This document shows, piece by piece, positions 27,871 to 44,575 of a stretch of 64,000 nucleotides of DNA. The translations under genes and the position numbers were made by a program. The stretch's first letter is position 1, and each line of letters opens with the position of its first letter. The notes beneath the pieces are model-generated. The model was not told the DNA's origin and did not search any database. It worked only from the letters and a program-made list of their open reading frames with translations. The DNA is taken from IMG/VR virus record IMGVR_UViG_3300046542_000074, positions 37,376-101,375 of that record; one strand, 5' to 3'. Origin of the DNA: a virus.

Positions 27871-28800
27871 TTACAACTGAGCAACAAATGCAGTTCGTAC
27901 CACTTGAGTTGCTTCTTTGGTGAACAGTTTGTTAATAACCTTCCACTCTTCACCAGCGGCTGTCTTGGCGTGATAACCTTCCTCACGTTCGAACTCGTCC
28001 AGTACATCTAGCATGAACTCTCCAAACAACAAACCAAATTGCTTGTTAGTAAGTTCACCAAGCTTACTCAGCACATTACTTACACGAGCTTCAGTACAAC
28101 GGGAAGTAAGAAGTTCCAGAAGCTCACCGCCCTCTTCGCTCACTTCAACTTGTGGTTTGTGGACTGGCTTATCTTTCTTCTCTTTGAAAGCAGCAGATTT
28201 ATGCTTTAAGTAGACACGCTTACCACTTCTCAAGTAAGTAGGAATCACAGGCTCAAACACAAAACCTTCAGAGCTATCACGATCACCTACAACGGCAGCC
28301 TCTTTGGATACGAACTCTGGAGACAGTTCAAGAAGCTCTTGCAGAGTACCAAACTTAATAACTGGTACAATGGGGAAGCCCGCTTGCAGTGCGAAGCTAC
28401 CAAGTGCAACATCTTTCTTCAGAACTACACCGTCGATGGTTACATCAAAAGCTGCAAACCGTTTCTCACCGTAAAAGATTCCGGGTGAAACCTTACCACC
28501 AATGAGCTCACCGTAAACAACCACAACACTGTTTGGGTAATGTTCTTCACAGAACTCAGCAAAGTTGGCAGAGTGTTTGTTGATTACATTAGTGCAAGAG
28601 TAAAAGCTGCCATCAACAAAGTCGGAGCGGTTGGCTACACGAACACCATTCACCTTATCCCACCAGAAGCTGAAGTTGGCACCATGAAGTTTCTCAGTGG
28701 CAATCCACTCTTCCTTATAGCAAGGTTCGAATGCGATCATCTCAAGGAACTTCTTGTTGTAGGTGTTCTCTAGCGAGTTGAACTTACGGAACTCGGTCAT
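27871..28800 (-). CDS. RNA ligase, Rnl2 family
   Basis: Motif I EKLHGANF, GEL.G, AFDV, EGFV, K.K...FKE. Confidence 0.92.
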   Translation of the reverse strand: MTEFRKFNSLENTYNKKFLEMIAFEPCYKEEWIATEKLHGANFSFWWDKVNGVRVANRSDFVDGSFYSCTNVINKHSANFAEFCEEHYPNSVVVVYGELIGGKVSPGIFYGEKRFAAFDVTIDGVVLKKDVALGSFALQAGFPIVPVIKFGTLQELLELSPEFVSKEAAVVGDRDSSEGFVFEPVIPTYLRSGKRVYLKHKSAAFKEKKDKPVHKPQVEVSEEGGELLELLTSRCTEARVSNVLSKLGELTNKQFGLLFGEFMLDVLDEFEREEGYHAKTAAGEEWKVINKLFTKEATQVVRTAFVAQL

Positions 28801-29411
28801 TTCTTTTCTCCTTTAACTTCAGGCGTTAGTGCCTTATTCTCAACTTTCAGTAGAAAAGCAGAAGCCAGTCGTTCACAATTAATGAACTGAAGCAACTGCT
28901 TACTAGTCTTTATCCGTGCGTCCAGCCACGCTGTATGCGCTGCCTCGGGTGTAGTAAAGTATCCCAAGTGTGTACGCTTACCGTCGATATCATTGCTTTG
29001 TGCGACATATCGCCCTTTCTTCTCATGAACACCTGTCGGCAGAGTAGAACTCTTCGACTTTCTGTGAGTCAGGAACCGATTTATCCGAGTATGCACGAAA
29101 ACACAATGGTCTGGTGAGTATATCTGCCCAGTCCCTAGGATATCTTTATCTAAATCCTTCCCTTCCCAACTTTGTGCCTCCATCCAAGTCTTGAATACAG
29201 AGAAGGTGTGCCACTCTTCGGCAACTAATACGCCTCGATAGGTTGGGTGCTTATCTTGAAACTTCTCAGAATAGCACCGCTGTATCATCCCCTTCCAGAT
29301 CGAAAAGAAGGGGCAGATCCACAAGAGCTTCTTTTCACTAGTGTTGATCTGCACTACATAGCCAGCATCATTTATGCCGACCCCATAAATCAGACTACGC
29401 CTACTTCCCAT
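28797..29411 (-). CDS. Putative free-standing homing endonuclease with AP2-like C-terminus
   Basis: W.GM.QRCY, LDKDIL..YSP..CVF and HLGYF.TPE.AH motifs. Confidence 0.75.
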   Translation of the reverse strand: MGSRRSLIYGVGINDAGYVVQINTSEKKLLWICPFFSIWKGMIQRCYSEKFQDKHPTYRGVLVAEEWHTFSVFKTWMEAQSWEGKDLDKDILGTGQIYSPDHCVFVHTRINRFLTHRKSKSSTLPTGVHEKKGRYVAQSNDIDGKRTHLGYFTTPEAAHTAWLDARIKTSKQLLQFINCERLASAFLLKVENKALTPEVKGEKK

Positions 29412-31873: not shown

Positions 31874-32070
31874 TCAAACACTTCATCCTTGAGGATAGAA
31901 GCCGCTGACACAAAGATATGAGTAACATCCCACATCTCATTATGGAAAACTTGACCTGCTTGGAATACAGCATGAACAAGGTTGTCGCCCACGACTTGGT
32001 ATTCTCGTGTCTTCATTTCTTTTGTATCACAGTGCTGTCTTGTGCAGGTTACATCATAGATGTTTTTCAT
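31855..32070 (-). CDS. Hypothetical protein, first gene of the leftward operon
   Basis: AGGAG RBS downstream of the leftward promoter. Confidence 0.65.
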   Translation of the reverse strand: MKNIYDVTCTRQHCDTKEMKTREYQVVGDNLVHAVFQAGQVFHNEMWDVTHIFVSAASILKDEVFEWNLSE

Positions 32071-32106
32071 TTCAGCTCTCCTAGTGGTTCGTTTCTGATG
32101 GCGGCA

Positions 32107-32135
32107 AGGTTACAGACCACCATTCGTCGTGTCAA
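32107..32135 (-). promoter_or_regulatory. Leftward sigma70 promoter
   Basis: TTGACA-17-TAACCT on the minus strand. Confidence 0.75.
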
Positions 32136-32177
32136 CAGTTATTTTGCAAAAGATTTACACACAGGTTGGCACGAATG

Positions 32178-32206
32178 TTGACATGGCTTGCCTGAGTCTG
32201 TACAAT
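32178..32206 (+). promoter_or_regulatory. Rightward near-consensus sigma70 promoter
   Basis: TTGACA-17-TACAAT. Confidence 0.85.
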
Positions 32207-32212
32207 GGGTGC

Positions 32213-32620
32213 ATGTGGTAGGGAAAGCTTACCTCGGAATGAGAGTTTTACGTTATCACTCGGGTTGCTCATTCTTAAAGCGCATTAACGGCAGCGGGCG
32301 CAACGTGTGGAAGTGGATCTTAAATGGTTCTGGTGTGACACGGCGGTCTGTCCTCAACGACAGAAACACACCACGGGAAAGACTTGTTGTGAAAGTTGAT
32401 CCTACTCTGCACATCTCTTCTATATAGATGTGTGTCTCGCTCAGCGGGAGAATATTGCGGCTCGGGGGTGATGTATCCTTGAGGGTGAATTCACGAGGAC
32501 TCTCCTATAGTTCTTCTTAGGTGTCTTTATGGCATATGGGGAGCTATAGGGGAAGTCTACTCAGAATTTGCTCTCAAGGGTGATATAAGAGATAGGGTCT
32601 ATAGAACAGACCAACATGAT
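32213..32620 (+). ncRNA. Putative ~400 nt structured non-coding RNA of unknown class (ends approximate)
   Basis: Own promoter, no credible ORF, tandem hairpins and a ~107 nt rod with 10 G-U pairs on this strand. Confidence 0.65.
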
Positions 32621-32654
32621 AGAAACAATCAATCAAGAAATATCAAATAAACAC

Positions 32655-32683
32655 TTGCACTGCCAGATTCATCACGCTAGTAT
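32655..32683 (+). promoter_or_regulatory. Sigma70 promoter with A-rich upstream element
   Basis: TTGCAC-17-TAGTAT. Confidence 0.65.
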
Positions 32684-32842
32684 TCATCTCAAGCAGCCAA
32701 ACATGCTGCAAAGGAAAGACAACAGCGTTGCTAGGGTAGCTTCTCAGGAAGCAAGGAAAGAAGTCAGGAACGCTAGGCACTTGTCTACATAGACACGTAC
32801 AAATGTCCTAAACAACTTTACGAACATCCCAAGGTGAATCTG

Positions 32843-33106
32843 ATGAACACTGAACAAACTGTAAACACCACTGCAAGCCGTCCACGTACCACTCGTTCGG
32901 TTAAGAACCGTACCACTGTCAAAGGTAAATTCAGCACAGTGTCTGGTACTACTGTACGGCATGTATACACCACCGATGGTCAACTGTTGGGCTTCATTCG
33001 TAAGCAAGCAGATGGAACCTACGAAGTACACCGTACCACTGACAACAAACGTCGAGTGAAACCTACATTGGATCAGGCTTTTGCCACCATTGCAAGGGCG
33101 AACTGA
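32843..33106 (+). CDS. Small basic early protein
   Basis: Arg/Lys/Thr-rich; AAGGTG SD; own promoter and terminator. Confidence 0.7.
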   Translation: MNTEQTVNTTASRPRTTRSVKNRTTVKGKFSTVSGTTVRHVYTTDGQLLGFIRKQADGTYEVHRTTDNKRRVKPTLDQAFATIARAN

Positions 33107-36710: not shown

Positions 36711-37175
36711 ATGCAAGTATTTGGTAATTGGTTGACAAACTGTGCCACTCAAGATGGTGCTGAGTTCTTTCTGTCACTGTACGACATGACGGCTCAACAA
36801 ATGATTGAGCATTACGAACTTGAGAACAACGCAACACTGACCAAAGATGATGTGCAAGCAATTGTCATCCTTGAGTCTGATAGTGATGTGAACCAAGTGT
36901 TTGTATTGGAAGACGGAGATAAGGTGTGCGTGTATGCCGAGGGTTGCTGTGATACTATTTTCAATACTGATGGTTTTGCCTTCATGGAAGTTTGGAATAG
37001 TGGGGTGCTGAGCGGACTCTATGCCATTGACAATTCCCCATACCAACTGGTAGATGCTTGCGACATGGCTGATAATGAAGACATTGACTTTACAGACTTG
37101 AAAGAACATCTGCTGAAAGAGTATAATCTCAGCCGCGTAACATTTGAGAACACGATTTTCATTCGTCAATTGTAA
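36711..37175 (+). CDS. Acidic hypothetical protein
   Basis: AAGGAG RBS. Confidence 0.7.
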   Translation: MQVFGNWLTNCATQDGAEFFLSLYDMTAQQMIEHYELENNATLTKDDVQAIVILESDSDVNQVFVLEDGDKVCVYAEGCCDTIFNTDGFAFMEVWNSGVLSGLYAIDNSPYQLVDACDMADNEDIDFTDLKEHLLKEYNLSRVTFENTIFIRQL

Positions 37176-38855: not shown

Positions 38856-38893
38856 AAAGGAGCCTTGCGCTCCTTTTTGTTTTTGTGTAGAAT
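38856..38893 (+). promoter_or_regulatory. Overlapping terminator and promoter before DNA polymerase
   Basis: AAAGGAGC-cttgc-GCTCCTTT plus T tract; TTGCGC-17-TAGAAT. Confidence 0.6.
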
Positions 38894-44542: not shown

Positions 44543-44575
44543 GGCCTCGCATTCTTCGGAGTGCGGGGCTTTTTG
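44543..44575 (+). terminator. Intrinsic terminator with UUCG tetraloop
   Basis: GGCCTCGCATTC-TTCG-GAGTGCGGGGCT-TTTT. Confidence 0.9.

Follow-up and report, generated by a model that had tools for sequence, protein, structure and literature searches.

A family of structured leader RNAs heading the rightward operon of ~100-kb phiPMW-like phages

Behind a strong promoter at a point where two blocks of phage genes diverge, positions 32213-32620 of the DNA analyzed here raise the question of whether they hold a gene, an independent RNA, or the untranslated head of an operon. The analyzed stretch of 64,000 nucleotides (the window) comprises bases 37376-101375 of a 101,375-bp IMG/VR record with direct terminal repeats; its phage and its copy of the element are labeled G000 in the family comparisons. 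A previous reading made from the letters alone (the sequence-only reading) took the segment for a self-contained non-coding RNA of a new class. The region from 32207 to ~32590 is the G000 member of a family of leader RNAs, ~330-420 nt long and with about ten helices. The leader heads the rightward operon, which runs into the primase-helicase and DNA-polymerase genes, of ~100-kb phiPMW-like phages. We regard it as nearly certain that this is a conserved family of leader RNAs structured on the plus strand and previously undescribed.

The divergence point and its promoter

With its counterparts in the Pseudomonas siphophages phiPMW and vB_PpS_SYP (SYP), the major capsid protein of the source phage shares 52-55% identity, and a small lipoprotein adjoining the locus is common to Pseudomonas syringae phages. 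A near-identical copy of the locus is present in a rhizosphere metagenome. The hosts of the ~100-kb phiPMW-like phages are probably Pseudomonas.

The minus-strand genes, among them those for an HNH endonuclease and an Rnl2-like RNA ligase, extend to 32070; beyond this point, genes on the plus strand reach a primase-helicase (37144) and a split DNA polymerase. Thus, the leader is located at a true divergence point. The promoter TTGACA-17-TACAAT that had been noted here is present as written (Table 1); it scores 11 of 12 against the consensus and is the best match within 27-38 kb. A promoter of the form TTGACA-17/18-TAnnnT precedes the leader in all 12 members of the family, 74-117 nt upstream of its central domain. 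The rightward -35 box is itself preceded by an inverted copy (window 32131-32183; L086, ~1471-1490; L041, ~17703-17684), which reads TTGTCAA...TTGACAA in G029 and SYP. As judged from its sequence, this arrangement would fit either two divergent promoters placed back to back or an operator that overlaps the -35 box of each. A search across the genome for a second copy of the leader element found none, and the motif GGGAG(G/A)GTGG(G/T)CG has no match within the element.

Downstream of the leader, a 58-aa ORF at 32616 (window 32616-32842) lacks a ribosome-binding site and matches no family. The interval 32600-32845 shows no significant structure (z = -1.4), and the first gene to have a good ribosome-binding site begins at 32843. 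The non-coding region may measure ~635 nt here, as in the relative G001. The next genes after the leader are small ORFs; the first large ORF encodes 324 aa, and its only matches are PHROGs without a known function. Further inside the rightward block, strong intrinsic-terminator-like hairpins are observed on the plus strand at 38856-38876, directly 3' of the primase-helicase gene, and at 44543-44570; promoter-like sites are found at 37098 and 41437. Thus, the rightward block is probably divided into several transcription units.

The folded strand and the RNA family

The plus strand of 32213-32620 folds at -151 kcal/mol with z = -5.8, a value as good as which was seen in none of 100 shuffles, and the minus strand yields z = -1.8. 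All helices named in the sequence-only reading were re-derived base by base, and every one is present (Table 1). The three stacked helices of the rod contain exactly 18, 15, and 5 pairs, of which 4, 4, and 2 are G-U, with no other type of mismatch. The rod alone folds at -60 kcal/mol (z = -7.3). When all 120-nt windows on both strands of the whole 101,375-bp genome were scanned, it was the top outlier at -6.8 SD after GC correction, followed by a window at -4.2 SD.

Table 1. Positions of the promoter, the leader elements, and the overlying ORF in the window
Feature	Position	Strand	Description
Sigma-70-type promoter	32178..32206	+	TTGACA 32178-83, 17-nt spacer, TACAAT 32201-06; predicted start near 32213
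79-aa ORF	32188..32427	+	Overlies the RNA; not a gene
H1 hairpin	32217..32233	+	6 bp, purine-rich loop
H2	32236..32275	+	8-bp stem, conserved 24-nt loop; covariation
H3	32280..32301	+	Short G+C stem, 14-nt loop, then conserved AAC
H4	32315..32330	+	5-bp hairpin; GNRA tetraloop in some members
P5 + H5	32331..32373	+	P5 (7 bp) enclosing H5 (6 bp); third and fourth helices of the sequence-only reading
H6	32375..32403	+	Two-part hairpin: outer GGGA/UCCU, inner part variable
H7	32409..32433	+	8-bp hairpin; predicted fold, covarying type-B equivalent
H8	32435..32449	+	6-bp hairpin; covarying type-B equivalent (helices 3 and 4 of alignment A12)
X1	32450..32463	+	Conserved GAAU...GGCUC segment; from sequence comparison
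Rod	32471..32585	+	Outer 32475-92/32564-81; middle 32502-16/32538-52; apical 32521-25/32531-35
Family-wide rod core	32495..32562	+	5' strand CUCC(U); 3' strand nearly invariant purine tract GGGGAAGUCUA
Y2	32573..32586	+	Second copy of a direct repeat; first copy Y1 (32479-92) precedes the rod

The absence of a match to known RNA families holds at the gathering thresholds of Rfam 15 for the whole window; the families covered include RNase P, introns, riboswitches, and C4/put-like RNAs. A permissive search of 32050-32900 (E up to 10) returned two eukaryotic chance hits only (E about 3), the models of RsmY/Z, 6S, and CrcZ had no match up to E 10, and ARAGORN found neither a tRNA nor a tmRNA. The paper on the phiPMW genome does not mention the region as RNA (PMC5587285).

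There was no blastn match for the region in 50,697 phage records with the own or near record masked, and single-protein searches via the neighboring genes yielded no relatives in IMG/VR. The primase-helicase module also occurs in unrelated phages such as KLEP7. No leader homologue was detected by blastn, nhmmer, or covariance model (CM) at 31 IMG/VR loci sharing the primase-helicase (56-80% identity), or in KLEP7 (73% identity), where the divergence gap measures only 167 nt. Among environmental contigs, one from wastewater (11 kb) matches only 32260-32315, with flanks that look diverged rather than unrelated. A pattern derived from the core identified G001 (IMG/VR 3300036466_000103, 96.6 kb), a phage whose capsid protein is 57% identical. 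It carries the whole element behind TTGACA-17-TAGAAT, again at the divergence point, and the element folds with z = -3.3 on the plus strand and -0.4 on the minus strand. The core, H3, is 82% identical between the two phages at the nucleotide level, and the flanking proteins are undetectable or 22-32% identical. The equivalent gaps of phiPMW and SYP have the same layout.

Covariance models R1 and R2 were built from these first homologues and run over the capsid-related IMG/VR records. The resulting family has 12 strong members, which include the window, the isolate phiPMW, G001, and several of G018-G030; SYP provides an additional, divergent copy. With R2, which describes the central domain (H4-P5/H5-H6), the window scores 113 bits (E = 4e-33) and the 11 other phages 75-130 bits. 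All homologues occupy the same genomic place, and the member phages are all 96-107 kb, G020 being an incomplete record of 90 kb. The CM search found no recognizable copy in nine complete relatives of 84-91 kb, or in two complete relatives of ~104 kb, G023 and G025; a weak R2 match in G025 falls within coding sequence and was rejected. A pattern scan of genome_contigs gave two contigs from MAGs, both rejected by the CM, and only chance hits in bacterial genomes.

Two sets of contigs deserve separate mention. A pattern scan of metagenomes yielded a single contig, the GC-rich bacterial MAAA01014664.1 (L036:7360-7440), in which a 22-nt H3 block and a 13-nt block (AGCCTTAAGTGGC) are found in the same order as in G001. 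They lie beside TGGCCGACAA iterons, at the margin of an AtuA-like ORF with a partial duplication 0.5 kb away. The CM matches H3 only (E = 0.14), and this is probably chance, otherwise a fragment. The wastewater runs X3/X4, labeled as RNA-Seq, contain an 11,141-nt contig at a depth of ~36; around the leader, its flanks are an exact match to G001. Probably it is DNA carry-over, hence not evidence of expression, and it represents a G001-like relative rather than the window phage.

The family architecture consists of H1-H8, an H9/X1-Y1 element, and a terminal rod. The prediction of a structure under selection is borne out by compensatory changes in the syntenic copies of the 12 phages. The central domain (H4, P5, H5, and H6) was analyzed in the model-fitted alignment A9 of 12 sequences. 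Here, 91.9% of cells pair, versus 76% in column shuffles and ~43% with slid partners, and double changes are seen at 19 of 27 pairs; none of 500 shuffles reaches the observed values. The share of pairing cells is 95% in H4 (helix 1 of A9; double changes at three of five pairs), 98.8% in P5 and 88.9% in H5 (helices 2 and 3; 12 of 13 pairs), and 87% in H6 (helix 4; four of nine pairs).

Because fitted alignments lean towards their own model, the count was redone on plain MAFFT alignments. For H2, the MAFFT-only alignment with all 12 members shows pairing in 97% of cells versus 72% in shuffles, double changes at four of six pairs, and four pair types at one position; the covariation of H2 is 0.65 versus 0.13, with no shuffle out of 500 as high. 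Among the type-B members, of which there are eight, 94.5% of cells pair in H7, H8, and the rod apex taken together, with double changes at 10 of 32 pairs (reached in 0 of 500 shuffles). Their H7-equivalent helix pairs in 100% of cells and has double changes at three of seven pairs. At the 5' end, a hairpin in the place of H1 is visible in SYP and in 10 of the 12 members with at least six different stem sequences, and is absent in G029 and G030. The counterpart of H3 in other members is GGC...GCC. The sequence-only reading had argued from G-U pairs in the rod that the plus strand is the folded one, and this argument extends to the family: across its helices, G-U pairs stand against A-C pairs at 93 to 10, so the plus strand is the one that folds.

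The rod is present as had been described; its 18-bp outer helix, however, is confined to the subgroup of G000, G018, and G020 and is not family-wide. Within this subgroup, the changes in the outer helix are compensatory, and G018 and G020 retain the whole rod with 46 consensus pairs, eight of them with double changes. What all members share is at least 20 bp of near-continuous double-stranded RNA, the size of RNase III hairpins, together with the rod core. The pairs of this core are invariant or differ by G-U only, and the apical hairpin covaries at four of five pairs. Conservation of the core in sequence, rather than by covariation, suggests a sequence-specific partner and not a mere requirement for double-stranded RNA.

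A soil contig (run X2) that covers 32190-32486 with ~98% identity carries two changes that keep helices, 32229 T>C (G-U to G-C) and 32242 A>G (A-U to G-U). It also has a GC insertion after 32472 and diverges completely at 32486, in the 5' arm of the rod. Thus, the rod appears to be the fastest-changing module of the leader.

The Y repeats that flank the rod are 9-13 nt long, and Y1 and Y2 change in concert between subtypes. In other members, X1 pairs with Y1 to form the hairpin H9; in G000, comparison of the sequences suggests that X1 could compete with X2 for Y1. A further pairing is seen in the type-B2 leaders (L097, L095, L094, L092, and L096), where the H2 loop CACUCACCG is complementary over 7-8 bp to CGGUGAG at Y1; in G021 and G024, the terminal part of the pairing carries a single compensatory difference. 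This pairing may represent a long-range pseudoknot competing with the X1:Y1 hairpin. Y was also considered as a genome-wide operator or promoter motif and rejected, as outside the leader it occurs at chance level only.

Possible functions of the leader

In none of the 12 copies is the rod followed by a T-run terminator. In seven of the eight type-B members, Y2 forms the 3' tail of the leader and directly adjoins the initiation signals (Shine-Dalgarno sequence plus start codon) of the first gene. Since there is no terminator in any copy and the 3' end leads into the first gene, the element is the 5' leader of the rightward operon rather than an independent gene. The earlier proposal of a self-contained new RNA is thus upheld as to the structured plus strand, the promoter of its own, and the new family, but not as to self-containment. 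The rod of G000 and G001 is separated by 170-260 nt from the first downstream gene whose ribosome-binding site is convincing, so translational coupling is not universal.

We propose that the leader would act in cis on the early transcript, in its control and processing. The rod, at least 20 bp of double-stranded RNA before the first ribosome-binding site, could be an RNase III target, a translation-control hairpin, or both, and alternative pairings among X1, Y1, X2, and Y2 could couple its state to the first cistron. Cleavage of the rod would release a stable, highly folded 5' RNA of ~270 nt, which might act further in trans. Sequestration of the Shine-Dalgarno sequence by one conserved partner was considered and rejected, since single-sequence MFE folds differ among members; RNAalifold gives only a 3-bp UCC:GGA contact to it, without covariation. 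Taken together, a structured leader family with this mechanism of cis control and processing, which is deduced from sequence comparison, has in our judgment about an even chance of being right.

About ten helices and many conserved unpaired bases exceed what a processing site or stabilizer needs, which hints at an additional function. Candidates would be the binding of a ligand, a protein, or RNA polymerase, or catalysis. The size of the leader, the number of its helices, and its conserved unpaired tracts leave room for a function richer than housekeeping. More speculatively, the leader may belong to a new class of large ornate functional RNAs, as an RNA polymerase modifier (a larger analogue of put), a switch gating the replication operon, a ribozyme, or a sponge released by cleavage; we offer this as a tentative possibility, well short of an even chance.

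A trans-acting RNA is the alternative that survives best. The leader would then serve as a sponge, decoy, or scaffold for a host or phage factor such as RNA polymerase, Hfq, RsmA, a nuclease, or a defense protein; a consensus promoter would supply it abundantly and at once, and its place before an operon would be incidental. Its size and complexity resemble those of large ornate phage RNAs that are not cis-regulatory, such as ROOL and GOLLD (PMC12286853). Strong conservation is seen in many unpaired stretches, for example the rod's purine tract and the junctions next to H4 and H6; the near-consensus promoter is very strong; and the leader is kept whatever gene comes next, the first genes being of several unrelated kinds among the members. 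However, no copy has a terminator or another defined 3' end, and in most members the 3' tail adjoins a ribosome-binding site. This explanation also lacks a known partner, the models of RsmY/Z, 6S, and CrcZ being unmatched. As regards sponges of CsrA/RsmA, which present several GGA motifs in hairpin loops, conserved tracts containing GGA are found around H4, H6, and the rod, most of them in stems or linkers and not in loops. We consider a trans-acting RNA rather unlikely, though not negligibly so.

Another scenario is a replication pre-primer or origin transcript, similar to ColE1 RNA II or the T7 primary origin, whose RNA-DNA hybrid would prime the leading strand. This would agree with the location of the leader, which directly precedes the primase-helicase and polymerase operon at the point of divergence, with its G-rich and C-poor composition (28% G versus 19% C), and with ColE1 RNA II being likewise a multi-hairpin RNA of several hundred nucleotides. 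However, the G run at 32464-68, which the sequence-only reading had offered as an RNA II-like clue, is shared by G000 and G020 alone, the other ten of the 12 copies lacking it, which leaves the idea without its main clue. There is no promoter-like site on the minus strand of 32213-32620 and no iterons or AT-rich unwinding stretch nearby, and the 3' tail is tied to the ribosome-binding site rather than to a conserved hybrid-forming site. The turn in GC skew was rejected as evidence of an origin because the switch in gene orientation accounts for it. A pre-primer thus seems improbable.

An element acting at the DNA level, that is, a cruciform or a single-stranded initiation or packaging signal folding in the plus strand, is very improbable. 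Single-stranded DNA tolerates G-T pairs, and strand asymmetry alone does not prove RNA. However, the first helices start no more than ~10 nt from the predicted transcription start and the promoter is at a fixed distance in all 12 members, so the element is defined relative to the 5' end of a transcript; moreover, multi-branching together with GNRA-type loops is typical of RNA.

Finally, a small protein, encoded either by the 79-aa ORF here or by the annotated phiPMW gp181 and SYP gp113, can practically be dismissed: some copies do have ORFs of 72-81 aa, and two GenBank records annotate CDSs across the region, but the length, frame, and position of the ORF differ in every member, and the substitutions are compensatory in helices and not codon-periodic. 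Across the 12 leaders, the longest ORF measures between 25 aa, as in G001, and 81 aa, with 43 aa in G020, and its frame and place vary. In a near-identical environmental copy (run X5), one C is inserted after 32395, inside the 79-aa ORF, and searches of this ORF against Pfam and PHROG gave no match. The earlier statement that the segment holds no credible gene therefore stands. The two GenBank CDSs, L002:16179-16568 (phiPMW gp181) and L041:17462-17707 (SYP gp113), start upstream of the promoter or across it and are probably false genes.

Comparison with known RNAs

With the operon leader as the preferred reading, the closest functional parallels are found in early phage transcripts. In lambda and T7, a long leader hairpin is cut by host RNase III, with effects on translation and stability. 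The N-leader of lambda PL and T7 R0.3 share with the present family an untranslated leader of several hundred nucleotides, a strong early promoter for the host RNA polymerase, and a long double-stranded hairpin before the first cistron. However, there is no sequence relation, the leader described here is built from about ten covarying helices with long conserved single-stranded tracts, and cleavage is only proposed for it. A lambda-type nut site, with a conserved boxA and a boxB hairpin, was not found in the family: a boxA-like UGCUCU is present only in the type-A rod 3' arm and is absent in the eight type-B members.

The put element of HK022 is also a cis-acting folded RNA located just after early phage promoters, where it heads long operons with terminators inside them; the rightward block here likewise has its terminator-like hairpins at 38856 and 44543. 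It is an RNA-only processive antiterminator of ~70 nt, for which two stem-loops are sufficient. By contrast, the leader is five times larger and differently built, its conserved unit comprising at least 330 nt and about ten helices, and it does not qualify as a put-type element. Given the internal promoters of the rightward block, antitermination is not obviously required.

ColE1 RNA II is a multi-hairpin RNA of several hundred nucleotides, and as a pre-primer it resembles the leader in having a constitutive promoter beside replication functions. The differences are that the G run is not conserved in the leader family, that there is no promoter of the type that drives the antisense RNA I, and that the 3' end joins a ribosome-binding site. 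Two other comparisons were rejected. 6S RNA is a rod of ~180 nt with a large central bubble, whereas the leader fold is multi-branched, has only small internal loops in its rod, and has no Rfam match to 6S. A retron msr-msd is likewise rejected, as there is no adjacent reverse-transcriptase gene.

Large bacterial and phage RNAs with about ten covarying helices are rare, and RNase P, OLE, ROOL, GOLLD, and raiA are each said to have opened a line of work. ROOL and GOLLD are, like the leader, large multi-helix RNAs borne by phages, of unknown function, and recognized by comparative analysis; they are found near tRNA islands and measure 580 to >800 nt (PMC12286853). The leader differs in having no Rfam match to either, in being promoter-proximal and heading an operon, and in being confined to one phage clade.

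The leader is well placed for experiment: it has a defined promoter, heads a replication operon, occurs in the cultured pair of phiPMW and Pseudomonas putida, and is short enough for chemical probing and cryo-EM. It also corrects two GenBank CDS annotations (phiPMW gp181 and SYP gp113) and can serve as a marker for a clade of soil and water phages of ~100 kb. Should the leader indeed gate early gene expression, it would be a new case of RNA-based control of a virulent phage program.

The opposite side of the divergence point offers a separate observation on RNA metabolism. In the leftward block, window 27871-29411 contains the genes of the Rnl2-like RNA ligase (PHROG 548, E = 5e-67) and the HNH endonuclease, and a tRNA cluster lies upstream of the window. 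This combination suggests a counter-defense based on tRNA repair.
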